Source: Vulcanimicrobiota bacterium
GTDB lineage: Bacteria > Vulcanimicrobiota > Xenobia > Xenobiales > JADMJV01
Assembly: GCA_023447635.1 (NCBI GenBank)
Contig: JAEXNA010000219.1
Location: forward strand, 27,678 to 91,677
Direction: 5' to 3'
DNA length: 64,000 nt
This document shows, one piece after another, positions 15,467 through 64,000 of this stretch. Below the pieces are notes generated by a model. That model worked only from the letters and a program-made list of their open reading frames with translations. It did no database searches and had not been told where the DNA came from. Position 1 is the first letter of the stretch. Each line of letters opens with the position of its first letter. A program made the position numbers and the translations under genes.

Positions 15467-15480
15467 GATGGGTCCTTTGT

Positions 15481-15519
15481 CTTGTCAGGAAAAACAAGCC
15501 CGGGCCCCGCGGGGCCCGG
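15481..15519 (-). terminator. intrinsic-terminator-like element between pfaA stop and pfaC start (GC hairpin plus U-tract)
   Basis: On the minus (sense) strand, a perfect 20-nt palindrome CCGGGCCCCGCGGGGCCCGG lies 7 nt after the pfaA TAA. It is followed by GCTTGTTTTTCC. A second small hairpin (CTTGT...ACAAG) sits beside it. Confidence 0.35.
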
Positions 15520-15526
15520 ACCGGGG

Positions 15527-23047: not shown

Positions 23048-23092
23048 GGATCTCTGGTTCCTCTTATGGATTTCGATGGTAAGGGACGGCGG

Positions 23093-24727: not shown

Positions 24728-24817
24728 TCCACCGCCACGATTCCTAGCGACAGACCTCGCGAAGCGGCATGAAGCCGCGCCCAGGTCCATGCCGTTCCCT
24801 TTTGGGGAGGTCGGCAC

Positions 24818-28121: not shown

Positions 28122-28194
28122 TCCTCCAACAGGCCTTCCCTCCCCTCCCCCTGAAGTGGAGGGGAATCTCCCCAGAGACGAAAGGCCGCCCGCC

Positions 28195-31904: not shown

Positions 31905-32795
31905 CTAGAGCTTACGCGCTAGCACGCGGTAGGAGCCTAGCACCGGCAAGCGGAGCGGAATATCCGCCAGTGAGGTGCGCAGCAGCGGCTTCAACCAGAC
32001 GTGCCCGGTGTGGTGGTAGACACTGGACAGGCTCATCCACTGGGACTCCGTTTCCATTTCGAGCGTCTCGAAGCCGTGTTCGGCCAGCAGCGACGTCACG
32101 TGCTCGGCGTTCATAAAGTACAGGGCGTTAGGGGTCTTCTTGAATCGCCCTTTGAGATAGCGCGCCCAGTGGTCGTAGGCGTGGAAGTTCATCGCTAAAA
32201 GCCCGCCCGGAGCGAGCCACTGGGCCGAGCGAGCGAAAGTCTGGCGGGGGTTGTCGAAGTTCGAGTCGCAGCCCCAGGCGGCCAAACCGTGAAAACCGGT
32301 CCCTTCAAACTCGGCGTCTTCGACGAACCCCTGCCGCACCTTGACCCGCCCCGAAAACTTGCTGTCCGTTAGACGAGCCATCGACTGGGAAAGCTCCAGC
32401 CCTTCGGCCGCCACCTGCTGATCAGCCAACGCCTCGAGGAAGTAGCCCGCGGCCGAGCCGACTTCGAGCACGCGAAGAGTCTCGTCCCTATGGTATCGCC
32501 GAAGATGACCCACCAGCCAGGCCGCTCGGGCTTGCGCCGTTTTGCGACGCCAGGTTTCGTCGGCCAGATAGTCGCGGTAACCGCTTTCCCCCTGCCAATA
32601 GCTGACCGAGTCGTAGAGCGCCGAGAGGGCATGGGCGGAAGGGCGCGGGTCCAGATACACCAGAGAACAGTCCGTACAGCGAACCCAGCGCAGGTGCAGT
32701 TCCCCCAGGCCGGTTCCGACCTCTTGCTCGGTCCGCCGACGATCGCTACCACAGAGATAGCAGCAGCGCTGATCGACAAACTGGGCGCCGTTCAT
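31905..32795 (-). CDS. class I SAM-dependent methyltransferase with N-terminal Cys4 zinc ribbon
   Basis: CxxC...CxxC (CYLCGSD...CTDCS), then motif I VLEVGSAAGYFLEAL and motif II/III-like GGLLAMNF. 4-nt overlap with the downstream GT-C-like paralog 2 (32792..32795). Confidence 0.75.
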   Translation of the reverse strand: MNGAQFVDQRCCYLCGSDRRRTEQEVGTGLGELHLRWVRCTDCSLVYLDPRPSAHALSALYDSVSYWQGESGYRDYLADETWRRKTAQARAAWLVGHLRRYHRDETLRVLEVGSAAGYFLEALADQQVAAEGLELSQSMARLTDSKFSGRVKVRQGFVEDAEFEGTGFHGLAAWGCDSNFDNPRQTFARSAQWLAPGGLLAMNFHAYDHWARYLKGRFKKTPNALYFMNAEHVTSLLAEHGFETLEMETESQWMSLSSVYHHTGHVWLKPLLRTSLADIPLRLPVLGSYRVLARKL

Positions 32796-35689: not shown

Positions 35690-35846
35690 TACCCCGGCCG
35701 GTTCTGTTCCGCCCTTCTCGCCCCTGCTTCCACCCTCAATCCCCTGGCACGCACCTGTACGGCGAGGGGGCATACCGCAGGCCTACCCGGGTGGGGAATT
35801 CCCGAGCGGGGCGAGGAAGCTTCCGGAGGTTGGAGAATGTCGCCAT

Positions 35847-37010: not shown

Positions 37011-39173
37011 CTAGGGGGTGACGGTCAGCGTCCCGAAGTCGTCCCAGCCGTGCTCCGGCGACAGACGCGCCTTGACCCGGTATTCCCCCGTGACGTAAGG
37101 AGCGATGAAGACCATCTGGGCCCGTGCCGTAGCCTTCTGCTCGTTCTCGTCAGCTAGAAACTCTTGTTCCCCCAGCGGCTCGAAGCGAAGTTCGAAAAGG
37201 CATGGAGTCGGCCCGTTATAGAGCAGGGTCAGAGGGCGACCCGCCGCCGCAGCCCTTTCGAAACGGATCCCGAAAGGGCCGTCGCCCGGCGCCGGCAGAG
37301 GCGGCACATTGGCCACCCGGTAGACTCTGGCGCCGGCGGTCTGGTAGTCCGCCCGACCAAAGCTGGCTTCGCCTCGACTGACCAGCAGCCAATCCACCTT
37401 CGGGTCCAGCCGCTGGAGATCTCCCGTAGCCCAAAAACCGCGCTGCTGCAGGTTGGTCTGGTAGCTGTTGACACTGCGAGACCACCAGGGCGGGGTGGCT
37501 TCCATAGCCGGCAAAAGACCGGTGGCGCCGATCAAGGTCCCTCGAGCGTTAGCGGGCAGGTCCCAGCTGTCGCACAAGAAGTATTCGCCCCGTTTCGAGT
37601 GATCCCGGATCCAGTCGGCCGCTTCGAGGACCGCCGGAGAGATTCCGTAATGATAGCTCAGCGCCAATTGGGGGTTGGGAAGGATCCCCTGACCTGGAGG
37701 CAGCCCCGGGCGCCCGATAGGTAGAGGCGTTCCTGGATGACGATACGCCCCGAGCATGTCCCGCAGAGCGAGCTGAAGACCAACCGAATTCAGAGCCACC
37801 AGCAGCACCGTAACGACGACGGCCGGGCGACGCCAGAGCCGACAACAGGTGGCCAGGGTCAGCCCCAGGGCGACGGCCGACCCTAGCGCCGTGACCACCA
37901 GCCAGCGAGCCGACTCCGGTTCGAAAAAGCCAAAATCCGCCAGCGCCGGCGTCAGCAAACTGAACCAACCCAGCAAGCACCACCAGACGCCTACCGGAGA
38001 TCGGCTCCGCCGCCAGGCGGCCCAGGCCAGGAAGGCTGTCGAAAGAGGGAAGAGCCACAGCGGGTACCAGAAAGTGTCCAGAATGTCGCTGCTCCAGATC
38101 GGTCGATAGTCCGACGAGGGGGCAAAATCCGCTCTCCAGGGCCTCGCTCTGGTCTCGAAAGCGCGGCTGGGCCGCAGATTGTCAGAACGGATCTGAAACA
38201 GCTCCTTTTTGAACAGTCGAACCCGAATCGTCTGCTCCGCCCCGCTCTCCTTGGCTCCGCGCGCTGTCGAACGCATCACGCCGCTGAGCAGCGCCGCGCT
38301 GAGTAACGCCAGAAGACCGATCGTCAGCATCGCCCGGGGTCGACGCCAGAAGACCAGCAAGCTTAGCCCAAGCACCCCAAAATGGTTCTCATACAGCAGA
38401 GCGTCGAGCCCTAACAGCAGCCCCGCCGCCAGCCACACCCGAGGACCCAGACGGAACGCTCGAAACACCGCCCAACCCACCACGATCAGCAGAGAAAAGG
38501 CGGCCGGGTTGTTGTTGGCCAACAGTTCGGAAAGCCCACAGTAGGCCGAGAAGTTCATCCCGAAGAAAGCAAACCCGCCCCCCAGCACCCCCGCCAGGTC
38601 ATCTCCTAACTCTCTCCGCAGCCACAGCGTCAGGACCAGGAAAGAGAGAAGCTGCCAGACCGTGGTCAGGAGCCACTCGCTGGTCAGCGGGCTCAGGCCG
38701 GTGTCGCGGACGCAGATCGCTATCGCCAGATCCCGACCGTAGTGCCCGTTCATAGGGACTCCCAGGAATGGGTTGACGGGAGGCAGGTAGCCGCGGGAGA
38801 AAAGCCCGATGTTGGCTCCGTGAATAAAGAAGTCGCCGTCCACCACCATTCCGACCGACTGATGGAACCAGCAGAGCAGCAGAACCAGAGCCGACCCCAG
38901 GAGCAGATAAAGGCGCAGCCAGCGGCCGGGAGCAGGGTAGCTCACCGAGGGCGAAGGCTGTCGACGCAACCACACGCCCCCCCCAACGAAGCCAAGACCC
39001 GTCAGCACCATCCAGGGGATCCAGGGAACGGCCCTGAGCAGCAACCCGCCCGAGAGCAAAGCCGCGAACAGCCCCAGCAAAGGAGCCAGGGCCAGGCTTA
39101 GCCAGCGGCACGGTTCGGCAAAAAGGCGGCGAGCCGCCGCGTACCCGCACAGCGTGCCCAGCAGGGCGAGCAT
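37011..39173 (-). CDS. polytopic membrane protein, GT-C-like putative glycosyltransferase (paralog 3 of 4; shortest)
   Basis: DGDFFIHGANIGLFSRGYLPPVNPFLGVPMNGHYGRD, ELLANNNPAAFSLLIV, YENHFGVLGL. C-terminal soluble domain ~250 aa. Confidence 0.7.
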   Translation of the reverse strand: MLALLGTLCGYAAARRLFAEPCRWLSLALAPLLGLFAALLSGGLLLRAVPWIPWMVLTGLGFVGGGVWLRRQPSPSVSYPAPGRWLRLYLLLGSALVLLLCWFHQSVGMVVDGDFFIHGANIGLFSRGYLPPVNPFLGVPMNGHYGRDLAIAICVRDTGLSPLTSEWLLTTVWQLLSFLVLTLWLRRELGDDLAGVLGGGFAFFGMNFSAYCGLSELLANNNPAAFSLLIVVGWAVFRAFRLGPRVWLAAGLLLGLDALLYENHFGVLGLSLLVFWRRPRAMLTIGLLALLSAALLSGVMRSTARGAKESGAEQTIRVRLFKKELFQIRSDNLRPSRAFETRARPWRADFAPSSDYRPIWSSDILDTFWYPLWLFPLSTAFLAWAAWRRSRSPVGVWWCLLGWFSLLTPALADFGFFEPESARWLVVTALGSAVALGLTLATCCRLWRRPAVVVTVLLVALNSVGLQLALRDMLGAYRHPGTPLPIGRPGLPPGQGILPNPQLALSYHYGISPAVLEAADWIRDHSKRGEYFLCDSWDLPANARGTLIGATGLLPAMEATPPWWSRSVNSYQTNLQQRGFWATGDLQRLDPKVDWLLVSRGEASFGRADYQTAGARVYRVANVPPLPAPGDGPFGIRFERAAAAGRPLTLLYNGPTPCLFELRFEPLGEQEFLADENEQKATARAQMVFIAPYVTGEYRVKARLSPEHGWDDFGTLTVTP

Positions 39174-39442: not shown

Positions 39443-39850
39443 ATGAAGAGAAAATTCCAAACCCTGATCACCCTGACCCTGATGCTCTCCCTGTTTGGCG
39501 CCGCCCTTGCCGCCTTGCCGCCGCTGTCTCCCGAAGCGCAGGAGCAGATGGCCAGCGACATCGTCGTCGCCACCGTCGGCAAAGTGGAAAAGAGCACGAT
39601 CTCGGTCCCCGGTGGCACGGACACCCTTTTCACGATGCAACTCGAGGTGGGCCAGGTCGAAAAGGGCGCGCTGAAAGCCGGACAGTCCATCACCGCGACC
39701 TGTCAGAAAACCGCCCAGCGTCCTGAAGGGATGGTCGGCCCCCAGGGGCAGAACCAGATCCCGGCCGAAGGGGATAAAGCCACTTTCTATCTGACCCGTG
39801 ACGGCGAAGGGCCCTATAAGCTGCTGCAGCCGAACGGCTGGTCGAAATAG
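39443..39850 (+). CDS. small secreted hypothetical protein (signal peptide)
   Basis: GGAGGGAGAAAGG SD 6-8 nt before ATG. N-terminal MKRKFQTLITLTLMLSLFGAALAALPP is a Sec signal peptide. 135 aa. Confidence 0.6.
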   Translation: MKRKFQTLITLTLMLSLFGAALAALPPLSPEAQEQMASDIVVATVGKVEKSTISVPGGTDTLFTMQLEVGQVEKGALKAGQSITATCQKTAQRPEGMVGPQGQNQIPAEGDKATFYLTRDGEGPYKLLQPNGWSK

Positions 39851-39911
39851 CCGTAGACCTACATTTCGTCAATTCCCAGGAGACCTAAGCCCGGCATGGA
39901 AGGCGGCAGCG

Positions 39912-42707
39912 GTGCTACCGCTGCTAGCCATACCGCTCCTGCTGGGCTACCTGTGCGCTCGTCGAGGTTTAGGTCGAGCCATCTGGCCGGCGGTGGCGGG
40001 GGAAACCGCCGCCCTTGCCGGGGTGCTGACCCTGATCGGCGTGAACGGCGTCTATCGACTGCTGGGCTCGCGCAGCTTCGACGGCTGGACCGCCCTGGAG
40101 GTCTCCGTAGCCGTGACGCTGGGCGTCGAACTTCTCGTCGCGCTGCTGCTGCTGTGGAAGGCGCCTCGCGGCCCTAACTGGCGCCGCCTGCCGTCGGCCA
40201 CCACGGTCTGGATACTGGCCTTGAGCGCTCTGGTTCTGTTCTATACGAACGCCCAGCAGATCGCCAACCCCGACGACGACTACTGGATCCACGCCCCGTT
40301 GCAGGGGCTGATGCGCCACGGCAATTTTCCCCCCTTCAACCCGTTCTTTTCCGACATCGCCATGAACGGCCACTACGGTCGTAACCTGAGCATCGTCGTA
40401 TTCTCCCTTCTTTCGGGCACCGACGTCTTCATGAGCCAGCACCTGCTGACCAGTGTCGTCCAGGTGGTGACCCTCTGGCTCTTCTTCTCGGCTTTCTGGC
40501 GCTCGTCGGGAAGCTGGCAGGCCGGCCTGGTCGGAACCGTCTTCGTCTTCTTCGGAATCAACGCCGGGGGGCGAGGCGGGCTGATCGACACCATGCAGAA
40601 CAACAACGCCTTCGTGCACCTGTACCTGGCCTTGCTGCTCTCCCTGATGGTGGACGTCTGGAAATGGCAGGGGAAGAGCGCGGCCGTGCTGGCAGGCTTG
40701 ACCCTGGGCTCCTACGCCATCGTTTACGAAACCCACTTCGGCCTGGTCTTCTTGACCGTGCTTAGCCTGACCCCGATCTTCTGGCTGCGCAAGATGATTA
40801 CGGGGAAAGCCGCTCTGCTCTCTGCCCTGGCGCTAGCTCTCTCTCTGCCTCTGGCCTTCACTCAGGGCGGCCCCCTGACCGACTTACTTCATCGGAAGCA
40901 GCAAGGCATCGAACATACCCAGGCCGAGACTCTGTCCCGCGGGATGCAAAACCAGGCTCAGGTCGTCAAGGTCACCTTCCCCAAGAAGGAGCTGTTCCAG
41001 ATCCTTCTCGAGACCGGCGAGTACCAGAGAGTGGCTCAGATCTACACGCTGGACACGCCGCTCAAAGGGCTGCACACCCCGTCGGTCGAGCGTGGCTACG
41101 CCTATGTCTGGTCCTGGGACGTCCTGAAGATCCACTTCTTGCCCCTCTACCTGTTTCCACTCTCGCTCGGAATCCTGTGGCGACGAAAGAACCTGGCGGG
41201 CCATTTTATGGGCGCTTTTGGCGTCATAGCCTTTCTGACGCCCGCGCTGGTGCATTTCGGACCGATCTATGAATCGGAATACTACCGCTGGGAATTTGCG
41301 GCCTCCCTCGGCTTCGCCGGAGCGCTGGGGCTGACGGTCGCAGCTTTAGCCGAAAAGAAGCCTGGCCTCACCGCCCCCCCCTTCAGCTGGAGAGCCCCCT
41401 ACCTGCGCGTCGAGCGCCGAGGCGCTCGGCTCCTGCTGCTGGGCGCCCTGACCTTGCTCAACAGTTGGGCCTGCCTGACCTTTGTCAGTGGGCGCCTCTC
41501 CGCGGCCCTGAGCGGCTCGCCGATGAACTGGCTGCTTTTCCCCTCGACCGAGACCTGGCTGCAGAAACACCAGGTGCTCGACTTTGACGAACTGGACTAC
41601 CAGGCCGCCGAATGGTTAGCCGCCCAGGTCCGCCCTGGCGATCGCTTGCTGACCAACTTCGCCGAAGAGAACAACTTCTCTATTCTTTTCGAGTCGACCC
41701 TGACCGGCCTGACCGGCGCCCGCTGCGTGGGACACGCCCTTCCCCTCGAGGACGAAAAGATCGGGACGACGCCGTTCCGACGCTCTCCCGCCGCCGTCGC
41801 TTTCTGGGCAACCTACAAGGGCGACCCACTGAGTCAGCTCAAAGCCAACTGGGTTTACTACCGCAACGATCAGGGCGAGGAGCTTCCTCCCCTGCCCGGA
41901 GCGAAGCTGGCTCATCGCGTCCAGGATGGCCCCAGACTGCGCCTGGTCTACGCCATCGACCCCTCGGCCCTGCCCGATGTGAACCCTTCGGAAGAGCCAG
42001 CTACCGACGGGCTGCCCGGCGCAGAAGCCCGTCTGACTGGCCAGCCCGCCTCGCTGCGCGGGGGGCGTCCGGTCGATCTCACGCTGACGTCGGCCAGCCA
42101 GGCGTTCCGCGGGGTGCTCGAGTTCGCCACCGTCCGACGCTCGGACGGACTGGTATCTTCGCCGTCCGAGAACCTGCGCTGGAGGCTTGACGGTAGCCAG
42201 GGTCGACCGCTCGAAGTGCCGTTCGTGCCGCCCTACGACCCCGGCCTCTACCAGTTGACGGCTCGCTGGTATCCTGACCCGGACACCCCTCCCCTCGAAA
42301 TTGCGGCTCCCGACATCGACGTCGCCTTCGCCGAGTTGCTCGGCAAGGTGCGCATCGCCGATGTGAGCTACCCTCAGGGAAGCTGGGGTCGGCAAAAGAG
42401 CTGGCCGAGCCGCTCGCTGATCACACCCCAGGTCCGGCTCGACCTTCCTTCTGCCTGGCCTACCGAGGGCAACGACGTTCTGGCCTGCTGGGCTTTCTAT
42501 TCCGGCGAGCGCAAGGAGTTCGACCTTCTGCCCGCAGTGAACATGCGAAGGGTGACTCTGAACGAGAAGCCGCTCGAACTTCCTCTGGTGACCCCGCAAC
42601 GCCCGGGCCTCTACCGTTTGGCTCTTTACCTGTCCGCAGGCCAGGGCCAGTTGGTCCGAGTCCCGTTAGGCCAGGTCGAAGTCGTCTCTGACGGAGCAGC
42701 GCCGTGA
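39912..42707 (+). CDS. polytopic membrane protein, GT-C-like putative glycosyltransferase with periplasmic C-terminal domain (paralog 4 of 4)
   Basis: DDDYWIHAPLQGLMRHGNFPPFNPFFSDIAMNGHYGRN, DTMQNNNAFVHLYLALLL, YETHFGLVFL, ESEYYRWEFAASLGFAGAL. The track start 39798 overlaps the previous gene. In-frame GTG at 39912 has GGAAGG 8 nt upstream and begins a hydrophobic helix (VLPLLAIPLLLGYL). Confidence 0.7.
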   Translation: MLPLLAIPLLLGYLCARRGLGRAIWPAVAGETAALAGVLTLIGVNGVYRLLGSRSFDGWTALEVSVAVTLGVELLVALLLLWKAPRGPNWRRLPSATTVWILALSALVLFYTNAQQIANPDDDYWIHAPLQGLMRHGNFPPFNPFFSDIAMNGHYGRNLSIVVFSLLSGTDVFMSQHLLTSVVQVVTLWLFFSAFWRSSGSWQAGLVGTVFVFFGINAGGRGGLIDTMQNNNAFVHLYLALLLSLMVDVWKWQGKSAAVLAGLTLGSYAIVYETHFGLVFLTVLSLTPIFWLRKMITGKAALLSALALALSLPLAFTQGGPLTDLLHRKQQGIEHTQAETLSRGMQNQAQVVKVTFPKKELFQILLETGEYQRVAQIYTLDTPLKGLHTPSVERGYAYVWSWDVLKIHFLPLYLFPLSLGILWRRKNLAGHFMGAFGVIAFLTPALVHFGPIYESEYYRWEFAASLGFAGALGLTVAALAEKKPGLTAPPFSWRAPYLRVERRGARLLLLGALTLLNSWACLTFVSGRLSAALSGSPMNWLLFPSTETWLQKHQVLDFDELDYQAAEWLAAQVRPGDRLLTNFAEENNFSILFESTLTGLTGARCVGHALPLEDEKIGTTPFRRSPAAVAFWATYKGDPLSQLKANWVYYRNDQGEELPPLPGAKLAHRVQDGPRLRLVYAIDPSALPDVNPSEEPATDGLPGAEARLTGQPASLRGGRPVDLTLTSASQAFRGVLEFATVRRSDGLVSSPSENLRWRLDGSQGRPLEVPFVPPYDPGLYQLTARWYPDPDTPPLEIAAPDIDVAFAELLGKVRIADVSYPQGSWGRQKSWPSRSLITPQVRLDLPSAWPTEGNDVLACWAFYSGERKEFDLLPAVNMRRVTLNEKPLELPLVTPQRPGLYRLALYLSAGQGQLVRVPLGQVEVVSDGAAP

Positions 42708-44704
42708 TCGGGCGAATGGGCAAACTGTGGTGGGGCTTCCTGTTCGTTCTGCTGGTGGTGGCCGTCTGGCTGACCGGGACCGGGCACATCTTACTTCATG
42801 GCGTGCCGCTCGAGGTGCTCGAGGGGCTGGCGCGGGGTCAGGGACTGGTCCCCCCTCCCGAACGCCCCCCCACCTTCGACGGCCTGGCCCTGCTGGGCCG
42901 CCTGCCGGGAGACAGCGTGGCCTGGGCCAGCGGCTTGACTTCGACGCTGAACTGCCTGGCCGCCGTCCTTCTCTACCTGGCCTGTCGACGCTCCTGGCAA
43001 AATCCGATCAGTCCCGTGCTGGCGGTAGGAGCTGCCTTCTTTGGCGCCACGACCATGTGGGTCGAAAGCTTGACCCCCGCCGACTCGCTGCTGCACCTTT
43101 GGCTTTGCCTGGGCTTAGCCGCCCTGATGGCCGGAGCCGTCCCGCTGATGGCCTGTCTGGTGCTGGCCGTGGCGACCTTCGCGCCCGGTGAAGCGCTCTC
43201 GCTGTACCTGGCCCTGGCCTACCTTGGCTACCGCCGGCAAGCGGCCTACGGACTAACCATCCCCACCGTCGCTGTGTTTGGTGTAGGATGCCTGATGATC
43301 CCTATGGCGGGAGGGTATCGCATGGAGCCGGGCCTGGGAGGCTGGTACCTGTGGTCTCTGCTTCCTCTGGCGCTGGCCTTCATCCCTTCGCAACTTCGCG
43401 AGGCCCGACAGGGCATCTACCTCAGTCTCCTGCTGGGCTCGGCCCTGACGGGATGCGGAGAGCTAGCCTCGATTCTGGCCCTGGGCGATCTGGCGTTCGT
43501 AGCGCTGCAGGCTTGCCGCTCCACCACCGAGACGGAGCAAGGCGAGGCTCCGGTCGAACCTGCCGAACCTGTCGGGCCGGCCGAGCCCACCGGGGCGCTC
43601 CGGCTTTCGGCAGTGAGCCTCGGAGGGCTTTTTGCCACCCTGATTCTGGTCGCGGTGGTGCTGCCAGGCGAGCGCTACCTCAACAGCACGGTGCTGATCG
43701 CGGCTCACAAGAAAAAAGTGCCGGTGCCGCAGCTCTTCCGCGTTCTGTCCCTGGACCAGCACGCCCGTCGTTTTGCCCAGGACCCCTGGAGGGCGAGAGC
43801 CCCGGTCGCGGGCCTGAGCGCCGCCGACTGCGAGTTGGCCCTGCGTTTGGCGGATGAGGGGGCGCCGTCCGGAATCTGCCCCCTAACCCTGGACGGATGG
43901 GCGGAACGGCGAGATATCGCCCTGGTCTACAGCCTGCTGTCCCGCCAAAAGCTGGTGGGATGGGACAATCCTGGCTCCCTGGCCCCTCCGCTTCTGCTGA
44001 GCAAGCTGCAGGGGAAAAATCTTCTTAGCCGCGGTCCAGCGGTCATTCTGCGCCAGGGCGACAGCGCCCAGATCGCTCCCCCACCGACGGCTCCGCGCTC
44101 GCCGGCCCCCCTGGATTTCCGCCATCTGATGGCGGTGCCCTATCTGCCTCAGACGGTCAGCAAGACCCCCGGCGCCGGCTATTTTTGGGTCAGTGCGGGG
44201 CAGAGCTACGAGGTCTCCTTTCCCAACGACCGCGCCGTGGTGATGGTTTCCGATCACGAAGGTGAAGTGCGACTGGCTTCTTTGAAAGCGGGAGGCGCCC
44301 GCCGCCACCTGGAGGTGGCTCCCACCGAGTGGATTCTGGCCGGGCTGCCCAGCCAGACGTCCTTGCCCAGCCGGAGCCTGGTGCCGATCACCTTGACCTT
44401 GAGCAACCAGGGACAGGGGCCGTTGAGTTCTCGGATGATCGCCGGATGGCGGTTCGAGATCGTCGGTGGAGAGAGCTGGAACTCGTTCGGGCAAGAGAAC
44501 CCCAAAGAGTTCCTTCTCTTCCCCGGAGAGGCGACCGATCTCGAATTCCAGCTTTCGACCCCGGAGGGCGAGGGGGTGTTCCCCGTGCGAGCGGTGGCCT
44601 TGACGGTCGAGGGGAAAGAGCTAGAGGTTCCCCTGGCCGGCCCTTCCCGGATCCGCACCTGGAGACGAACCCCGCCCGTAGGCACCTGGGTGGAGGAACC
44701 TTAG
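42704..44704 (+). CDS. large integral membrane protein with C-terminal soluble domain (glycan-assembly locus member, family unassigned)
   Basis: GTGA overlap with the previous gene. ~8 TM helices in the first ~280 aa, then a P/E-rich linker and a ~350-aa soluble region. Confidence 0.6.
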   Translation: MIGRMGKLWWGFLFVLLVVAVWLTGTGHILLHGVPLEVLEGLARGQGLVPPPERPPTFDGLALLGRLPGDSVAWASGLTSTLNCLAAVLLYLACRRSWQNPISPVLAVGAAFFGATTMWVESLTPADSLLHLWLCLGLAALMAGAVPLMACLVLAVATFAPGEALSLYLALAYLGYRRQAAYGLTIPTVAVFGVGCLMIPMAGGYRMEPGLGGWYLWSLLPLALAFIPSQLREARQGIYLSLLLGSALTGCGELASILALGDLAFVALQACRSTTETEQGEAPVEPAEPVGPAEPTGALRLSAVSLGGLFATLILVAVVLPGERYLNSTVLIAAHKKKVPVPQLFRVLSLDQHARRFAQDPWRARAPVAGLSAADCELALRLADEGAPSGICPLTLDGWAERRDIALVYSLLSRQKLVGWDNPGSLAPPLLLSKLQGKNLLSRGPAVILRQGDSAQIAPPPTAPRSPAPLDFRHLMAVPYLPQTVSKTPGAGYFWVSAGQSYEVSFPNDRAVVMVSDHEGEVRLASLKAGGARRHLEVAPTEWILAGLPSQTSLPSRSLVPITLTLSNQGQGPLSSRMIAGWRFEIVGGESWNSFGQENPKEFLLFPGEATDLEFQLSTPEGEGVFPVRAVALTVEGKELEVPLAGPSRIRTWRRTPPVGTWVEEP

Positions 44705-56381: not shown

Positions 56382-56454
56382 CCGTGAAATCATAGCATGT
56401 TCAACCACCCTGTGGGCCTTCTGTCGCCGCCGGGAATCCCTGGAGGAGATAGCT

Positions 56455-58671
56455 ATGTCCAGCACTATCAACAGTTCATCCTCGACCGTCCCGTCCACTT
56501 CGATCCGCCCGCAGGCTCGCCCCGAGACCGCCGGCGCCGCTGAAGTCGCCGCCGCGCCGCCTTCCGACGCCGTCGCCATCAGCGCGGACGCCGGCGGAGC
56601 CGCAGCGCCCAACCCGTATGAAGGGTTCTCTGAGCATTCGGTCTCGATGAAACCGGACTCCTGGACGAAGGACCGCACTCCGGGCGAAGGTCAGGTCGCG
56701 CGCAACGATCATCTCGAAGGGATGCTGCGCAATCAGGGCTACTCCGTCGAAGACATCTACAAGAAGGACGAAAACGGACAAAATCTGCTGCAGCGGGTGG
56801 CTGACGCCAACGGACTGAAAGATCCGAACCTGATCACGCCCGAGCAGTCGCTGACCCTGCCGACCAAGAATGCGCCTCCCGCCGATGCGGAGACCAAGGC
56901 CGACGAGGTCAAAGGGGAAACCGTCACCACCGAGGCTTACAACGAAGGGGAAGGCGCCAAAGCCAACGCCTCTACCGAGGTCGGTCGCGCTGAAGACTCC
57001 ACCCTGACCACCAGCGCCGAAACCCAAGGTGACGGCTCCGAGGCTAACGCCTCAACGAAGGTCGGTGAGTCAGAGAACTCTACCATCACCACCGAAGCGA
57101 AAGCCGAAGGGAAAGAAGCCACCGCCAACGCCTCGACCGAGGTTGGCAAGGCCAAGGATTCCGAGATTACCACCGTGGCCGCCGCCGAAGGCGAAGGCTC
57201 GCAAGCCAACGCCGGGACCGCCGTCGGCGAGGCGGAGAAATCCAAGATCACCACCGCGGCCGTGGCCACCGGCGATGGCGCGGAAGCCAACGCGGGCACC
57301 ACCGTCGGTGAAGCGAAAGAGTCAGAGGTCACCACCTCGGCCGCCGCCATCGGCGACGGAGCGCAAGCCAACGCCGGCACCGCCGTTGGCACGGCCGAAG
57401 ACTCTCCCGTCAAGACTGAGGCCGCCAGCGAAGGCGAAGGGTCGACGGCAGAGGCCGCCACCAGCGTAGCGGAAGCCAAAGATTCGACCGTAGAGACGAC
57501 TGCGGTGGCTGAAGGAAAAGATTCCCAGGCCGTAGCGATCGGTGAAGTCGCCAAAGCCGAAGATTCCACCGTGGCTTCTACGGCCGTCAGTGAAGGCGAA
57601 GGCTCCAACGCCGGCGCCGGCGCCTTCGTGACCGGAGCTGAAGGCAGCACTCTCGAGGCCTCGGCCTCATCCGACGGGGGCTCGGCCGAAGCGTACGTCG
57701 ACAACAGCGGCTACGATCAGAACGGTCGCGCCGAGGTCAGCGCTGCGGGCGCCGACGGCGCCCACGCCGAAGCCACCGGGGTCGAGCACGCCTCGGTCGC
57801 CGCGAATGGCGGCGCCGGGAACGCCGACGTCGTGGTCGACGCGAAGACCAGCGAGACGGCCGTGACGGGTGAAGGCGACGGAACGGTCGTGAACCAGGGG
57901 CGCGATAGCAAAGGCTCGTTCGACATCGACGTGGCCGGCGACGCCAGGATTCTCGACGAGGGCAACGACCCCACCATGTCGGGTACAAGCACCGGCAACT
58001 CCATCGAAGCTTCTGCTCGGGGTGAAGACCTGGAGGTTCGCACTTCGGACTCGAAGTCGGTCGACATCGCTTTCGAAGGTCGCGAAGGCGACAACTTCGT
58101 ACGGGGCAATCTGCCGCAGGGCGGCGAGTCGTCGCGGGTCGACCTGGGTCTGGGCGACGGGAACGACCGGGTCGAGATGCAGCGCGGCGCCAATGACGAC
58201 ACCATGATCATCAGCAAGACCGATGGCGAACTGGACCTGAACCTGCACACCGGGGTGGGAATGGACGACAACGGCTCGCAGACCACTCTGGTTGACGGCG
58301 GCAACGCTAAGATCAGCGGAAGTATCGGCGGCAGCGAGGGCGACGACACGGTAATGATCCAGGGCGGCGATTTTGGCGACCTGAAGGTCAGCGGCGGCAC
58401 CGGTGGCAACGACCAGCTGGTAATCGACCTGCCTGAAGGGGCGGCGATCCCTGCGATAGTCACCAAAGAAGCTGACTCGGGGTGGTTTGGCTGGGGCGCC
58501 ACCGAGGCCGAGGGGATACTGCCCGAAGGCTACAAGGAAGGCGACCAGGCGATCAGCGCCAACGGCTTCGAGAACATCGTCATCCGACAGGGCGGCAAGG
58601 TGGTAGGCCAGTACGGAGAGGGCGAACTGCCGCCGGAGTTCCAGCAGGCCGTGGAGCAAGCCCGCTCGTAG
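56455..58671 (+). CDS. LysM-domain protein with ~12 tandem 20-aa repeats and an RTX-like Gly/Asp-rich C-terminus
   Basis: GGAGGAG 8 nt before ATG at 56455 (track ORF extends to 56215). LysM-like YSVEDIYKKDENGQNLLQRVADANGLKDPNLITPEQSLTLP. Repeats of the form EGEGSxANAxTxVGEAxDSxxTTxA. C-terminal GGSEGDDTV / GGTGGNDQLVI nonapeptide-like units. Confidence 0.65.
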   Translation: MSSTINSSSSTVPSTSIRPQARPETAGAAEVAAAPPSDAVAISADAGGAAAPNPYEGFSEHSVSMKPDSWTKDRTPGEGQVARNDHLEGMLRNQGYSVEDIYKKDENGQNLLQRVADANGLKDPNLITPEQSLTLPTKNAPPADAETKADEVKGETVTTEAYNEGEGAKANASTEVGRAEDSTLTTSAETQGDGSEANASTKVGESENSTITTEAKAEGKEATANASTEVGKAKDSEITTVAAAEGEGSQANAGTAVGEAEKSKITTAAVATGDGAEANAGTTVGEAKESEVTTSAAAIGDGAQANAGTAVGTAEDSPVKTEAASEGEGSTAEAATSVAEAKDSTVETTAVAEGKDSQAVAIGEVAKAEDSTVASTAVSEGEGSNAGAGAFVTGAEGSTLEASASSDGGSAEAYVDNSGYDQNGRAEVSAAGADGAHAEATGVEHASVAANGGAGNADVVVDAKTSETAVTGEGDGTVVNQGRDSKGSFDIDVAGDARILDEGNDPTMSGTSTGNSIEASARGEDLEVRTSDSKSVDIAFEGREGDNFVRGNLPQGGESSRVDLGLGDGNDRVEMQRGANDDTMIISKTDGELDLNLHTGVGMDDNGSQTTLVDGGNAKISGSIGGSEGDDTVMIQGGDFGDLKVSGGTGGNDQLVIDLPEGAAIPAIVTKEADSGWFGWGATEAEGILPEGYKEGDQAISANGFENIVIRQGGKVVGQYGEGELPPEFQQAVEQARS
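56926..57660 (+). repeat. ~60-bp tandem coding repeats (x~12) inside the LysM protein gene
   Basis: Periodic gaaggcgaaggc...gccaacgcc...accgccgtcggcgaggcg...tccaccgtg pattern. The protein shows regular EGEGS...ANAGT...VGEA...DS...TT... units. Confidence 0.75.
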
Positions 58672-58679
58672 AGCGGTAA

Positions 58680-59852
58680 GTGCTCCCAAGACAACGACAA
58701 TTTCAAGACCCCCAGAGCGGCAAGCTCTGGGGGACTTTTTTTGATGGCTCGACCGTTCAGGTCGTCTCTGGCGCTCCCGGTAAGGAGAGGACGGTCGAGA
58801 AGCCCCAATCGGACCCGTTCAGCGCCTTTCGCTTTCTAGACAAAGAAGAAGGCGCTCGACTGCGCAAGGGGTTCATGCTGCGCAATCCCGAGGCGGGCCC
58901 AGGCGAGCCTCGCTTGCTGCGCCATCTGGGTCGCGGCTACACCGGCGCCCTGGTGGTAGCCGAACGTCAGGGCAAGCTGATCAGCAATCTGTTCGACGAG
59001 GCGACCGGCAGCGACGGACTCTGGGTCGTGAACAGTCAGGGAGAGGGCGAAGCGGTGCTCTCCCCCGGCGGCCTGGTCTGGGAGATGGGCCGAGGCAAGG
59101 CCAGCGTGCTGTTGCTGATCGACCATCAGGTAAAGGCGTGGAATCTTTCCACAAGCGATCTCAGCGAACTGACTCCTCGTCCCCGACACCCGGTCAGCTT
59201 CCTCTCCTGCTCTGGCTCGCTGGCCGCCTGGTACGACGAGCCCGAAGTGGTGGTGCGCGACCTGGCTGCGGGGCGCGACTTGCTGCGGGTCAAGGTCGAG
59301 CCCGAACTGGTCTCCGGCCATTCGCTGCAGCTTTCCGGCGCGCTGTCGCCCAGCGGCGACCGTCTGGCTTTTTCCGCCGGCCAGGGCGTGGTGGAACTCT
59401 ACGACGTGCGAAGCGGACACTGGCTGCGCACCATCTGCGCCGACTTTGCCATGACCGAGCGGATGGCGTTTAGCTCGGACGACCAGCGACTGCTGGCTAA
59501 GGAGAAGTACGGTCGCTGGCGCCTGCTGGACTTCGACCTGGAGGCGGGCGTCTTGAGAGACACCTTCGCCGGTCTTGGCGACCTGGGCAACGGCGATTTT
59601 GCCTTGGACGCTCACGGCGAACGGGTGGCGGTGGTGTCCGGTTCACGCCTACGGATGGTCGGGCTGGACGGCTCGCCCTTGCTCGAGTTTCGGCTGGACC
59701 AGACGGTAAAGCGGGCCGCTCTGGCCTGGACCGGCGACGGCCATCTGGCGGTGCGCACCGACCTGGGGTTGCTGGGCGTTTACGCCGTGCCGATGCTTGC
59801 CTCGCCCGCCGACCGGGGCTCGTGGACAGGGCCTGACACGCCGATCGCATAA
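58680..59852 (+). CDS. hypothetical protein (beta-propeller-like repeats likely)
   Basis: 390-aa ORF starting 9 nt after the LysM protein stop. Recurrent ...LSPxGDRLAFS..., ...GERVAVVSGS... strands suggest a WD/TolB-like propeller. Low confidence. Confidence 0.45.
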   Translation: MLPRQRQFQDPQSGKLWGTFFDGSTVQVVSGAPGKERTVEKPQSDPFSAFRFLDKEEGARLRKGFMLRNPEAGPGEPRLLRHLGRGYTGALVVAERQGKLISNLFDEATGSDGLWVVNSQGEGEAVLSPGGLVWEMGRGKASVLLLIDHQVKAWNLSTSDLSELTPRPRHPVSFLSCSGSLAAWYDEPEVVVRDLAAGRDLLRVKVEPELVSGHSLQLSGALSPSGDRLAFSAGQGVVELYDVRSGHWLRTICADFAMTERMAFSSDDQRLLAKEKYGRWRLLDFDLEAGVLRDTFAGLGDLGNGDFALDAHGERVAVVSGSRLRMVGLDGSPLLEFRLDQTVKRAALAWTGDGHLAVRTDLGLLGVYAVPMLASPADRGSWTGPDTPIA

Positions 59853-59909
59853 TGGCTTTCCATACCGGAGCATAAAGGGCGCTCTCTTACCCTCTGCGTA
59901 AGAAACGTT

Positions 59910-60683
59910 ATGAGCCATGCCAAAAAGCGACTCTCTTCCCTGGACTGTCGGCTGCCTCCGGGGCAACCGGTCGTGCTGCGTCACGCCGCAAACACCGCTT
60001 ACCTCGAGGGCGAGGACCGCGAGCTGTCGGTCGGAGGTCATTCGAAATGGTGGTGGAGGCTGGGAGCTTTGTGGCGAGGCTTTTTCCTGCTCTTCGCCGC
60101 TGTTTGGCTGACCTTTCTGGTCTACAACGGAACCTGGAACTCTCCGCTGGCAGCGGAGACGCCCGCCACCTCTCTCGAAGTCGTGGACGGGGGCGGGAAC
60201 CGGATGCTCGCCTATTCGTATCAGGTCGAAGGCGAGACTTACCAGCGCACGGAGTCGCCCGGATCGACCTGGAAGAGTTCCTGGGAATCCGGCGATCCCG
60301 ACGAGACGATCCGCTACCTGACCTTCTGGCCCTCTCGGGCGCACCTGGACTTTCGCGTCGAACGCTGGTCCTGGGGCGGCGCCATCTCGATCACTCTGTT
60401 TGTCTTCGCCCTGGCCTACGCCGGCCATCTGACGATGAAGACCCAGCGACATCTGGAGCGGATCGCCGAAGGCTGCACCCATATCGTCCCCGGCAGCGTG
60501 GTCCAGGTCATCCCATCGCAGAACTTCCGCTACGTTATCTACAGCGCGACCTCTCCTACCACCGGACAGGAGATCCGGGAGAAGGTGATGGTGGGAGAGG
60601 GAGAGGCGGTCAAAACCTCCCTTGTCGTGGGAGCCCCGGTCGCGGTGCTGTACCGAGACGACGAGTCGCACACCTTACTTTGA
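59910..60683 (+). CDS. hypothetical membrane protein (two TM helices flanking a beta-rich ectodomain)
   Basis: 257-aa ORF. TM helices WWRLGALWRGFFLLFAAVWLTFLVY and WGGAISITLFVFALAYAGHL. Confidence 0.45.
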   Translation: MSHAKKRLSSLDCRLPPGQPVVLRHAANTAYLEGEDRELSVGGHSKWWWRLGALWRGFFLLFAAVWLTFLVYNGTWNSPLAAETPATSLEVVDGGGNRMLAYSYQVEGETYQRTESPGSTWKSSWESGDPDETIRYLTFWPSRAHLDFRVERWSWGGAISITLFVFALAYAGHLTMKTQRHLERIAEGCTHIVPGSVVQVIPSQNFRYVIYSATSPTTGQEIREKVMVGEGEAVKTSLVVGAPVAVLYRDDESHTLL

Positions 60684-60746
60684 GGACTAAGGATTGTCAG
60701 GGGGCTCGCAAGGTAGGCCCCGCGAGCGGTCCGAAAGCCGGACGGT

Positions 60747-61823
60747 ATGATCACGACGTTGGTGGAGCGATGCTCCGAGGGTTTGGTCGAACGACGCTCG
60801 GTGGTGGAGGCGATCGTGCTGGCCGCCGTGGCGGGAGAGCACGTGCTGCTGATCGGACCGCCCGGCACGGCCAAAAGCGAGGCGGCTCGACGGGTCGCGA
60901 GAGGCCTGGGCGGACGCTACTTCGAGTATCTGCTGGGCAAGTTCTCCGAGCCTTCGGAGCTTTTTGGCCCTACCGATCTTCGCAAACTCAAGGACGGTCT
61001 GCTAGAGACGGCCACCGAGGGAATGCTGCCAGAGGCCGAGGTCGCTTTCCTCGACGAAGTGTTCGCCGGCTCGACGGCTATCCTGAACAGCCTGCTGACC
61101 TTGCTCAACGAGCGCACCTACCGGCGCGGGAACACGCGCCTGGTCTGCCCTCTGCGGGTCTGCATTGGGGCCAGCAACAGCCTGCCCGAAGACGAGAGTC
61201 TGGCCGCCTTCGCGGACCGCTTCCTGGTGCGCTGCTTTGTCGAGCCGGTGGCCGACAGCCTGCTGGAGGATCTGCTGGCGGGCGGTCGGGCCAGGGTCGC
61301 CGTAGACGGGAGCGACACCGGTTCACTAAGCGACCTTGATGCCTACGCTCGACGAGCTCGGGAGATCGATCTGAGCGAAGTTCAGCCGCTGCTGGCTCAG
61401 GCGCTTCGTCGCCTTCGCAAAGAGGGGATAGGGCTTTCCGATCGTCGCTCGGTCAGGGCCCAGAACCTGATCGCGGCGGCCGCAGCGATCAGCGGGCGAG
61501 ATAAGGCGACCTCGGCCGACCTGTGGCCACTGCTGCTGGCGGTGCCCACGGCGGCCGAGCAGCGCCTGGCCCGACGTTGTTTGGAGAGCCTGCTGGCCGA
61601 AAGCGACAGCGCCGCCCTGCACCACCTGGCCGAAGAGGTTTCGAGGGCGCCCGCCGTGCGAGCGCGCGGCCTGGCCGAGGCTGCTCAGAAGGCGCTGACT
61701 TCTCCGGTCGATCCGCTACGCGTCGAAGGCGTGCTGCGCGACATCGACGCCAATTTTGCCACCGAAGCGCTGCCCGAAGAGTTGGTTCGGCTGCGAGGGC
61801 AGCTGAAATCCGCCCTCTCATGA
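60747..61823 (+). CDS. RavA/MoxR-like AAA+ ATPase
   Basis: Walker A HVLLIGPPGTAKS, Walker B AFLDEV, sensor ILNSLLTLLNER. Colinear similarity to E. coli RavA N-terminus (FLLGPPGIAKS...FEYLMTRFSTPEEVFGP...IVFLDEI...ILNTLLTAINER). Confidence 0.8.
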   Translation: MITTLVERCSEGLVERRSVVEAIVLAAVAGEHVLLIGPPGTAKSEAARRVARGLGGRYFEYLLGKFSEPSELFGPTDLRKLKDGLLETATEGMLPEAEVAFLDEVFAGSTAILNSLLTLLNERTYRRGNTRLVCPLRVCIGASNSLPEDESLAAFADRFLVRCFVEPVADSLLEDLLAGGRARVAVDGSDTGSLSDLDAYARRAREIDLSEVQPLLAQALRRLRKEGIGLSDRRSVRAQNLIAAAAAISGRDKATSADLWPLLLAVPTAAEQRLARRCLESLLAESDSAALHHLAEEVSRAPAVRARGLAEAAQKALTSPVDPLRVEGVLRDIDANFATEALPEELVRLRGQLKSALS

Positions 61824-62167
61824 AGCTAGAATGGCTACCGCGCGAGCAGCCTCTGCCGGTCGAGGGATGCTGGGTCGAGGGGGCCGCAGCGGAGAGCCTG
61901 GGGAAACGGCTGCGGGACGGTCCCGCCGCGGGACTTCGGGTGGCCCTGGGCGAGGGGCGCCTGGTGGTGCTGGGGGCCGAGCCGCCCTGGATCGAAGGCG
62001 CGATCTTTCTGGGCCGGGACCAGGGGCTGTACCTTCCTACTCTGTGGCAGCCCAACGTCCCGATCGCCTGGATTCTCGCTCGGCTGCGTCAACTGGGCGA
62101 GCCGCCCTGGGCGCTGGTCCCGCCGGGGCGGGCGATGGGGCTAAGCCAGGCGACGGTGCTGACGTGA
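61820..62167 (+). CDS. small hypothetical protein, translationally coupled to the RavA-like gene (ATGA overlap)
   Basis: ATG at 61820 overlaps the TGA of the ATPase gene. 115 aa (MKLEWLPREQPLPVEGCWVEG...). It is the C-terminal part of track ORF 61523..62167. Confidence 0.4.
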   Translation: MKLEWLPREQPLPVEGCWVEGAAAESLGKRLRDGPAAGLRVALGEGRLVVLGAEPPWIEGAIFLGRDQGLYLPTLWQPNVPIAWILARLRQLGEPPWALVPPGRAMGLSQATVLT

Positions 62168-63495
62168 GCTCTTCCGTCGAGTCGCCGGCCTGGTGGGAGA
62201 GCTGGGACTTTCTGGCGCCGGACACTCGCCAGGACTTTGGGCGGCTGGTCGACCTGTTGGAACGGGGGCTAAGCAGCAGTGGGGCCGCCACGCTTCCGGA
62301 CGAGCCCGCGGGTTGGTCGGGATTAGCTCGACGCGGCCCCTGGGACCGCCTGGTCCCGTCCGAGTGGGCGCTGCTCGAAGTCGCCCCGGAAGAGTTCGCG
62401 CGTCGGGCCGACGAGGGCGAACTGGGCTTCTGGCAGATGGCGCGGGACGGCCGGGCGGCCAGCCGCTCGGTCTGGCTCTGGCTAGACGCAGGACCGGACC
62501 AGTTGGGCGCCTGCCGGGTAGTGCAGATCGCCCTGATGCTCTGGCTGCAGCGGGTCTGCCGGCGGACCGGCGGGAGCTTTCACTGGGGCGTGGTTCAAGC
62601 GCCGGAGGCCGGGTACGAGGGGTTCGGAGCCGAAGAGCTGACGAAGTTTCTCTCCCTGCGCTCGACCGACCCGCCGCGTCGCCCTCCGGAGCGGATGGAT
62701 GGGATGGTCACCTGGTGCGTCGGCTCAGAGGGCTGGATGAGCCAGGTCCCCTCGAGCTTTCAGCGGGTGACGCTAAGTCAGAACGGGCCGGAGAGCGTCG
62801 AGTTGCAGGCGATGGAGCGGCGGTTAGAGCTGCCGCTGCCAACAGGAGAGAGGGCGGTGCGACTACTGCGCGACCCTATGGTCTGGAAGGTGGTGAAACG
62901 AACCAACGCTCCGGTCCAACGCGCCAACCTGCCGCCGCTCGGAGAGGCGCTCGAAGACTATACCTTCTCTCTCTGTGGCAAGAAGCTGCTGCTGGCCTAT
63001 CGCGACCGGATCGTGGTCGCTCCGATCCCGTCTTCGGTCCGTGAAGAGCCGGGAAAAACTCGCAGCTATCCGCTGCGTTTCTCGGGTCCCGTGCTGGGCA
63101 TGAGCATGGAGGGCAGGGCCATCCGCGTGGTCCAGCAGGTCGGGGGCGAGTGGGTGTTCTACCGGCTGAATCCCGAACTCAGCGACCTGGACGAGATGGT
63201 GCGGGTCGGCGCCGACGATTCCAATGCTTTCGACATCGGAACTTGCTGGACGGTCGACGGCGGCTGGCGCCTCTGGATTGAAGACAAATTCTGGACGGTG
63301 AAGTCGGGTCAACTCCGACCCTGTCTAGGGGTACACGGCGGCTCCCCGCTGGGAGCTGGAAGCTACCTGATGCTGGCTTCGGGAATGTTGCTCGACGCCA
63401 GGGAGAAGCCGGTCTATGGCCTGGACCCGAAACCCGAGGGCGATGTCGTCATGGCTCGGAGCAAGCTGCATCAGCTTCGTCAGCAAGAGCGCTGA
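62164..63495 (+). CDS. hypothetical protein (~444 aa), translationally coupled (GTGA overlap)
   Basis: In-frame GTG at 62164 overlaps the stop of the small ORF. The upstream part of the track ORF (61831-62163) is Gly/Arg-rich junk overlapping the ATPase gene in another frame. No clear MIDAS (DxSxS) motif. Confidence 0.5.
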   Translation: MSSSVESPAWWESWDFLAPDTRQDFGRLVDLLERGLSSSGAATLPDEPAGWSGLARRGPWDRLVPSEWALLEVAPEEFARRADEGELGFWQMARDGRAASRSVWLWLDAGPDQLGACRVVQIALMLWLQRVCRRTGGSFHWGVVQAPEAGYEGFGAEELTKFLSLRSTDPPRRPPERMDGMVTWCVGSEGWMSQVPSSFQRVTLSQNGPESVELQAMERRLELPLPTGERAVRLLRDPMVWKVVKRTNAPVQRANLPPLGEALEDYTFSLCGKKLLLAYRDRIVVAPIPSSVREEPGKTRSYPLRFSGPVLGMSMEGRAIRVVQQVGGEWVFYRLNPELSDLDEMVRVGADDSNAFDIGTCWTVDGGWRLWIEDKFWTVKSGQLRPCLGVHGGSPLGAGSYLMLASGMLLDAREKPVYGLDPKPEGDVVMARSKLHQLRQQER

Positions 63496-63510
63496 GTCGG
63501 CGAGCTAGGC

Positions 63511-63828
63511 ATGGTGATGGCACATCCTATGCCGGGTCAGGGGTGGAAGGTTCTCTGGCAAGACAAGGAAGAGATCTTGCCTGTCAACGGCAGGGTGCTG
63601 GGGCTGGTTTGCGAGGACCACTACGGCCCCGCTCTGGTCGTGCAGAACGGCCAGGAGATCCGACTTCAGGGGAGCGGTTGGAGTGAGCAGCTCGACCTGC
63701 ATCCCGGCATGCGCTTTCGTTTTCATCCCAACGGCTTGATGGCCTACCTCCAGGAGGACGGCGACCTGGTCGTCTACGGCTTCGCCGATCGCTCTGTCCG
63801 CTGGAGCCGCTGGAGTCACGAAGGATGA
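63511..63828 (+). CDS. small hypothetical protein (105 aa)
   Basis: ATG 15 nt after the previous stop. Its stop overlaps the next ATG (ATGA at 63825). Confidence 0.4.
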   Translation: MVMAHPMPGQGWKVLWQDKEEILPVNGRVLGLVCEDHYGPALVVQNGQEIRLQGSGWSEQLDLHPGMRFRFHPNGLMAYLQEDGDLVVYGFADRSVRWSRWSHEG

Positions 63829-64000
63829 GGTGGCAGGGGCAGGTCGAGGCCTGGGCGCTCTGGTTCCCACCCGAGGCGGCCACCTCCCATCGGCTGGCGG
63901 GGGCGTGGCAGCCAGGCTCGCGACTGCTTCAGGCAGGCGGCGGGATGCTGCTCCTCCTCCCCTCCCCCCGACCGGTCCGGGCGGAGCTGTCCCTAGCGCT
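63825..64000 (+). CDS. partial CDS (5' end), hypothetical, continues beyond window
   Basis: Open frame MRWQGQVEAWALWFPPEAATSHRLAGAWQPGSRLL... from the ATGA overlap to the window end. Confidence 0.3.
   Translation, partial: MRWQGQVEAWALWFPPEAATSHRLAGAWQPGSRLLQAGGGMLLLLPSPRPVRAELSLA

Follow-up and report, generated by a model that had tools for sequence, protein, structure and literature searches.

The subject of this analysis is a gene of 738 codons in a 64,000-nucleotide stretch of a Vulcanimicrobiota bacterium genome (contig JAEXNA010000219.1, hereafter the window), located at 56,455–58,671 on the forward strand. Its product has a four-part architecture, in which a leader is followed by a LysM-fold domain, a beta-solenoid closed at both ends and a conserved beta-structured C-terminal region, and it belongs to an uncharacterised family whose members all come from bacteria that have not been cultured. 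We tentatively favour the reading that it is a rod-shaped envelope or surface protein with a glycan-anchoring LysM-like head, a spacer solenoid, a specific function in its C-terminal part and a non-Sec export route, where both location and function are inferred; a surface or surface-layer (S-layer) adhesin is a plausible candidate. An initial annotation, made from the sequence alone, had proposed a LysM-anchored adhesin with a calcium-binding RTX-like tail.

The start of the gene was given in that annotation as the ATG at 56,455, with the reservation that the true start might lie at 56,215, from where the open reading frame (ORF) list gives an open frame of 818 codons. The ATG is preceded by a Shine–Dalgarno-like sequence, the AGGAGAT core of which is also kept in locus L011, which carries an 85%-identical orthologue, and the equivalent Met (Met-Ser/Ala...) is the start in all homologues of the alignment. 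The upstream BrkB/YihY-family gene (PF03631) stops at 56,381, and the 73-nt spacer that follows it differs from that of L011 by one 2-nt and one 1-nt indel. Consequently, the in-frame extension to 56,215 is not conserved coding sequence, and the start at 56,455 is borne out. The deduced product is strongly acidic (pI 4.1; 130 acidic vs. 49 basic residues) and free of cysteine. The earlier remark that no N-terminal signal peptide is visible was confirmed, as Kyte–Doolittle analysis of all 738 residues revealed no hydrophobic segment, signal peptide or membrane span (maximum 19-residue mean 0.95).

A word-indexed search identified 12 related proteins, all metagenomic and none of them named. Searching with single domains returned one protein for the N-terminal domain alone and none for the C-terminal region, a limitation inherent to word indexing. 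When the N-terminal domain was used in an exhaustive profile search, 483 clusters (50% identity) were obtained at E ≤ 1e-3 and 107 at E ≤ 1e-10, and the search also recovered canonical multi-LysM proteins through repeated matches to the alpha2–beta2 half. The full architecture is common to about 16 clusters at 50% identity and to 11 aligned homologues; for this count, P0003 to P0009 were added to the C-terminal BLAST cluster, which comprises P0001, P0016, P0021, P0023, P0025, P0027, P0028, P0049, P0070 and P0076. Scanning of species-representative genomes detected a full-length relative in a metagenome-assembled genome (MAG) of Vulcanimicrobiota (L008) and shorter relatives in MAGs labelled Selenomonadaceae and Burkholderiales, these labels being bin assignments. 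A phage origin was rejected, since there was no tblastn match in phage genomes and no relative on viral contigs.

The leader and the LysM-like domain

A structure model was built on the 11-sequence family alignment (mean predicted local distance difference test score, pLDDT, 84.6; predicted template modelling score 0.75). According to its pLDDT profile, the disordered N-terminus comprises about 52 residues and not the approximately 100 originally estimated, and the LysM-like domain begins at residue 53. The leader, residues 1–52, is not a signal peptide. It carries a D-x-V-x-I-S motif (DAVAIS, residues 38–43), in which D38 and V40 are invariant in alignment A1. The related motif D-x-V-x-L-S suggested a FlgM-like export region; this idea was dropped, as there was no FlgM Pfam match at E ≤ 10 and the only cultivated Vulcanimicrobiota species, a diderm, has no flagella (PMC9758169).

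LysM was the sole Pfam match of the whole protein, covering the second half of the model at E 0.25 (11.8 bits), and the NCBIfam scan of the whole protein gave no match. The isolated domain scored 16.8 bits, also under the gathering score of 20.9 bits set for LysM (PF01476). Each of the 12 N-terminal domains in the alignment nonetheless had LysM as its top Pfam match (best E 4.9e-4); P0021, a relative of the same architecture, reached 23.2 bits and thus passed the cut-off, and 41 of 106 wider relatives matched LysM at E ≤ 0.001. The profile of the domain picked LysM chains from the PDB sequences (Ecp6, SafA, CVNH-LysM, LytN, CEBiP and 6q40), and the model has the beta–alpha–alpha–beta fold with two antiparallel strands, although the confidence of the model is moderate here. 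Thus, the fold assigned to this segment in the initial annotation stands, while a LysM score above the cut-off is not obtained from the whole protein. By these profile comparisons, residues 53–138 are a divergent LysM fold, for which glycan binding is only predicted.

The divergence from canonical modules such as those of Ecp6, CEBiP, AtlA and MltD can be localized. The alpha2–beta2 half matches the LysM models and the LysM chains of the PDB, whereas the domain of about 85 residues has a long beta1–alpha1 loop of approximately 19 residues, which is nine residues shorter among the more distant relatives, and an additional inserted short helix of about 14 residues. The signature positions NDHL and N-x-L...LP are invariant or nearly so. 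In contrast to canonical LysM modules, the domain is always preceded by an invariant N-P-Y motif and a disordered leader, and there is no signal peptide.

The repeats and the predicted rod

The domain is followed by nine 27-residue repeats in perfect register, with zero indels and about three degenerate units at their flanks. The initial annotation had described about 12 repeats of about 20 residues with a 60-bp DNA periodicity. The tandem repeat itself and, if the degenerate units are included, the count of about 12 are defensible, but the unit is 27 residues or 81 bp: the BLOSUM autocorrelation of the protein peaks at a lag of 27 residues (2.18, whereas 200 shuffles gave at most 0.47), the DNA is identical to itself at a fraction of 0.63 when shifted by 81 bp but of only 0.34 when shifted by 60 bp, and Tandem Repeats Finder reported a period of 81 bp at 57,124–57,401. 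The 25-letter consensus of the annotation was already at odds with a 20-residue unit. Identity between the repeats is 0.61, 0.72 and 0.41 at the first, second and third codon positions, respectively. Since third positions are only 41% identical, the repeats are old and kept by selection at the protein level rather than produced by recent DNA amplification.

Six positions of the unit are invariant (G2, A7, A9, V13, S19 and A25) and four are nearly so (T11, A16, [LIV]21 and T23). The invariant small residues occupy odd positions, while the even positions are polar or charged, and this alternation is the pattern expected, from sequence, of two beta-strands that pack small side chains together. 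In the model, each unit comprises two strands, of 12 and 9 residues, which are separated by a 2-residue turn and followed by a 4-residue GxGx arc. Small residues (Ala/Thr/Val/Ile) line the interior, and the exterior is acidic. The pLDDT is 93–99 from residue 144 to about residue 470, and less regular beta rungs run on to about residue 720, after which a short helix follows. The repeats are thus predicted to form a rigid two-sheet beta-solenoid, both ends of which are closed by other domains. Rung size differs among relatives, being 27 residues in P0001 to P0004, 33 in P0009 and P0012, and 35 in P0008. The spacer role first proposed for the repeats is supported in spirit by this predicted rigid solenoid, the rungs of which vary in number and size among relatives. 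Two other interpretations were rejected. Designed 'Pizza' beta-propellers appeared among the profile matches but were judged to be repeat or composition artefacts; the segment matches were weak and the model is not a propeller. An ice-binding surface does not fit, because the outward rung positions are mixed with Glu and Lys and form no T-x-T array.

The modelled rod has the two-sheet strand–arc–strand arrangement seen in curli CsgA, which raised the question of whether the protein could be a curli-like functional amyloid subunit that builds extracellular fibres end to end. Curlin rungs are about 23 residues long, contain an N-x-hydrophobic-x-hydrophobic-x-Q kernel, are exported by Sec and CsgG and form an open-ended solenoid (PMC10192328). 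The rungs described here have 27 residues, the kernel with its N/Q ladder is missing from the repeat profile, and Curlin_rpt (PF07012) was not matched at E ≤ 10. Identity to CsgA of Pontibacter korlensis (subunit in 8c50) is 8%. Neither a csg operon nor csgB/E/F/G-like neighbours were present in the family loci inspected, and there is no Sec signal. As both ends of the solenoid are closed by conserved domains, end-to-end fibre growth is unlikely. The resemblance to curli is therefore one of fold and not of family membership, and we consider an amyloid function highly improbable.

The C-terminal region, export and location

The region following the rod is all-beta, contains invariant Gly and Asp columns in alignments A1 and A7, and finishes in a short helix (residues 729–737). 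Glycine and aspartate make up 18% and 10% of the C-terminal 298 residues, respectively, so the description of the tail as Gly/Asp-rich is correct. Its supposed richness in GGxGxD-like nonapeptides is not, as the protein contains no strict GGxGxDxUx nonapeptide, and the two GxGxD motifs counted compare with 0.95 expected from shuffles (P = 0.24). Only isolated GxGxD-type turns are found (GDGND at 567 and GGTGGND at 647–653), and the GG-x-G-ND position corresponds to an exact nonapeptide, GGDGNDVLV, in P0006 and P0007. HemolysinCabind (PF00353) was not matched at E ≤ 10 by the protein or 10 relatives, the profile of the C-terminal 300 residues retrieved no RTX protein from all PDB sequences, and neither Pfam nor the PDB sequences yielded any other relative of the region. 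Isolated GxGxD turns do not amount to an RTX beta-roll, and this element of the initial annotation failed with the hidden Markov model, the motif counts and the profile search alike.

These results bear on the proposal that the protein is an RTX adhesin or S-layer protein secreted by a type I secretion system (T1SS), with a Ca2+-binding beta-roll, a C-terminal secretion signal and a LysM anchor. An acidic, Cys-free protein with a Gly/Asp-rich C-terminus and no N-terminal signal would suit such a role, and so would the single GGDGNDVLV of P0006 and P0007 and the two strict nonapeptides carried by each of the distant wider members P0061 and P0094. The undetected HemolysinCabind, the nonapeptide and GxGxD counts and the PDB search all argue against it, and it differs from known members of this class (MpIBP region IV, 3p4g; RsaA) in having neither tandem nonapeptides nor a match to the model. 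Moreover, no gene for a T1SS ABC transporter, membrane fusion protein or TolC was found, either in the seven neighbourhoods examined or in those ORFs of the window that were scanned with Pfam, which cover only genome fragments, so the T1SS export suggested earlier found no support. Altogether, this reading seems doubtful to us.

The reading we favour, a rod-shaped component of the envelope or surface, can be outlined as follows. The LysM-like head would attach the protein to a glycan of the N-acetylglucosamine type, that is, peptidoglycan or another envelope polysaccharide, and the rigid solenoid would serve as a spacer whose length is tuned in evolution by the number of rungs and by their size (27, 33 or 35 residues); variation of both among relatives is the behaviour expected of a spacer. 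The specific activity, perhaps binding or self-association, would reside in the conserved C-terminal part, where cations may be held at the GxGxD turns. Export would proceed by a route other than Sec or Tat; proteins that are exported independently of Sec and attain their fold beyond the cytoplasm are typically acidic and Cys-free. Structurally, the rod comes closest to proteins that are secreted or located at the surface, with generic right-handed beta-helices among the matches. A partial parallel is offered by the polar landmark proteins FimV/HubP, which likewise pair a module of the LysM type with a region that is highly acidic, rich in repeats and variable in length. They have, however, a signal sequence and a membrane span, with the LysM domain in the periplasm and the acidic region in the cytoplasm, whereas the protein described here lacks a membrane segment and its repeats are predicted to fold into beta rungs.

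Several observations weigh against this interpretation. Its main weakness is topology: no signal peptide is present in the protein, or in the superfamily sharing its N-terminal module, that would take the LysM-like head to peptidoglycan in a diderm cell. Among 106 representatives of this superfamily, 102 have no hydrophobic segment of signal or membrane grade. Secretion genes were not seen in the seven neighbourhoods, and the zinc-ribbon protein encoded next to module genes in five other loci (see below) is probably cytoplasmic. Only 11 sequences underlie the model, and the confidence that AlphaFold assigns to repeats can be too high. The Foldseek comparison of the model with the PDB gave no significant match (best E = 0.06).

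Some of these points suit a cytoplasmic scaffold or an ion- or ligand-binding protein, in which the acidic rod would act as scaffold or polyanion mimic and the LysM fold would have no peptidoglycan role. Cytoplasmic Kbp and the 'glue' proteins of phage baseplates likewise contain LysM folds, and the near absence of signal peptides and membrane segments across the superfamily (4/106 have one), as well as the zinc-ribbon neighbour in five loci, are consistent with this view. Against it, the lytic transglycosylase (SLT) or anthrax-lethal-factor-type domains of wider relatives are in keeping with proteins that are delivered or extracytoplasmic, the rod most closely resembles surface or secreted proteins, and no cytoplasmic partner is conserved beside this subfamily. 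On balance, a cytoplasmic role appears rather unlikely, and the envelope or surface rod remains the reading we prefer.

The superfamily itself is widespread in uncultured bacteria and diverse. In the 106 representatives, a leader of median 51 residues precedes the module, and half of the proteins have no cysteine. Of 100 leaders, 35 contain [DEN]-x-[VIL]-x-[LIVM]-[STDN], vs. 5.1 expected. In 95 proteins, the sequences following the module on its C-terminal side could be grouped into 41 clusters that are unrelated to one another. Pfam domains found in single wider members are the SLT lytic transglycosylase, an anthrax-lethal-factor-type domain and EF-hands, so that the partners of the module include the beta-solenoid rod, SLT, anthrax-lethal-factor-like domains, a helical domain and GGxGxD repeats in runs. 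The leader (D-x-V-x-L-S), N-P-Y and the LysM fold may together serve a large polymorphic family as a common module for trafficking or targeting, which would mark the substrates of an unrecognised export or delivery route in little-studied bacterial phyla, although we think this improbable; if it were true, a function as dedicated chaperone or regulator would be conceivable for the zinc-ribbon neighbour.

Two further features of the superfamily were recorded. In P0017, P0019, P0024, P0030 and P0033, a single LysM-like module or a pair of them is accompanied by a Pro-rich linker and, at the C-terminus, by a conserved helical domain of about 120 residues (LEMGLMLDGV..NRFTR.EF.ALN...YG.MYARF), for which there is no Pfam match. 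The zinc-ribbon protein, which adjoins module genes in five distinct loci (Table 1), is 150–170 residues long; CxxC...CxxC lies at its N-terminus and a pair of Cys at its C-terminus, and its body is helical. It belongs to no Pfam family, and tblastn found no homologue of it in the window.

Neighbouring genes and significance

In the window, the gene is preceded by genes for a hybrid histidine kinase, an Fpg/Nei glycosylase and the BrkB/YihY protein. The next ORF starts 9 nt downstream, as first noted, and synonymous substitutions in the orthologous locus back its frame. It opens a beta-propeller-type MoxR-vWA ternary conflict system at 58,680–64,000 (+), a type described by Kaur et al. (PMC7159879). 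The possibility that the protein is an accessory or effector of this system was considered, as the ORF lying so close is followed by genes matching bpMoxR, bpX5 and bpX6, the arrangement is repeated in the 85%-identical orthologue, and these systems lack a recognisable effector (PMC7159879). However, the MoxR linkage is restricted to the window and this orthologue; it is absent from five other family loci, where P0003, P0005, P0006, P0008 and P0009 are encoded in unrelated neighbourhoods with no MoxR gene. Clustering of all flanking ORFs in 19 loci revealed no conserved partner of the subfamily. Because the linkage is not conserved across loci, it is most likely incidental. Membership in a defence system was also rejected, since neither the protein nor its four downstream neighbours matched a PADLOC model. 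A conserved terminator-like hairpin 3′ of the gene likewise speaks against a functional connection, and the accessory role is largely refuted, with very little probability left to it.

The hairpin lies 38 nt past the stop codon, within the 5′-end of the ORF at 58,680–59,852, where the T-rich run ACT TTT TTT GAT is in frame. The hairpin is identical in L011, where its flanks vary. As the substitutions on both sides are mostly synonymous in the 58,680 frame, the hairpin is situated inside coding sequence, and the idea that it marks a boundary, with the next gene starting only beyond it, was rejected. The hairpin may attenuate read-through from the gene into the MoxR operon.

Other parts of the window contain features that were noted separately. 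A gene cluster resembling polyunsaturated fatty acid (PUFA) synthases (pfa-type) occupies 8,264–24,817 on the minus strand, and the segment 1,476–4,938 encodes an acyl-CoA ligase, a hydrolase and an epimerase. Six ORFs of 660–1,020 residues have no Pfam match at E ≤ 0.001, an unusually dense group of large proteins of this kind. Among them, 20 kb from the gene described here, is a platform gene of the type II secretion system/type IV pilus kind (PF00482, 35,685–37,004).

Table 1. Coordinates of the gene, the parts of its product and other features (window positions unless a locus is named)
Feature	Position	Strand	Remarks
Whole gene	56455..58671	+	738 codons + stop; exact protein on record P0001
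Shine–Dalgarno-like GGAGGAG	56442..56448	+	6 nt 5′ of ATG; read from sequence
Ser/Ala/Pro-rich disordered leader, residues 1–52	56455..56610	+	pLDDT <50 at residues 1–51
Divergent LysM-fold domain, residues 53–138	56611..56868	+	NPYEG...NDHLEGMLRNQGY...RVADANGLKDPNLITPEQSLTLPT
Linker and first degenerate rung, residues 139–163	56869..56943	+	Model strands 144–153, 156–164; 27-residue register
Nine in-phase 27-aa (81-bp) repeats, residues 164–406	56944..57672	+	Consensus EGEGSQANAGTxVGEAEDSTITTxAxA
Degenerate solenoid continuation, residues 407–438	57673..57768	+	Register; strands in model
Conserved Gly/Asp-rich all-beta C-terminal region, residues 439–738	57769..58668	+	Alignments A1, A7; pLDDT mostly 85–97
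Terminator-like hairpin (10 bp, 8 G-C pairs) and seven T	58709..58743	+	Fold z-score −3.2
Beta-propeller-like 390-aa protein	58680–59852	+	
DUF3592 membrane protein	59910–60683	+	
bpMoxR AAA+ ATPase	60747–61823	+	PF20030, E 2e-80; P-loop GPPGTAKS
bpX5	about 61820–62167	+	Followed by two unassigned genes
bpX6	from near 63825, past window end	+	
2400-aa protein, two ketosynthase-type and three FabA-type matches	8264–15466	−	PUFA-synthase-like cluster
2506-aa KS-AT-6xACP-KR-DH protein	15527–23047	−	PUFA-synthase-like cluster
Enoyl-reductase-type protein, NMO domain and FabD helical insert	23093–24817	−	PUFA-synthase-like cluster
Six Pfam-less large ORFs	4935–8006, 28156–30921, 32792–35773, 37011–39173, 39798–42707, 42704–44704		
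Zinc-ribbon neighbours in other loci	L008 4935–5420; L009 11413–11922; L010 7479–7988 (= L019 4825–5334, identical); L016 348–806; L018 7224–7736		

The LysM fold and the beta-solenoid repeat rod are known kinds of parts. Their combination is not described in Pfam, NCBIfam, PADLOC or the PDB, and neither is a 27-residue curli-like rung outside the curli family or a large superfamily whose N-terminal modules lack a signal peptide and are combined with interchangeable C-terminal regions. For annotation, the guess of a 'LysM + RTX adhesin' is replaced by a defined, uncharacterised family, in which the repeat unit is corrected, the RTX call is removed and a predicted curli-type solenoid is added, whose closed ends make amyloid fibres unlikely. 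For protein design, the regular 27-residue rung with its Ala/Thr/Val interior would represent a compact two-sheet solenoid outside the curli family. If the proteins carrying the N-terminal module do reach the envelope, this would point to a mechanism of export or targeting that has yet to be described in these lineages.

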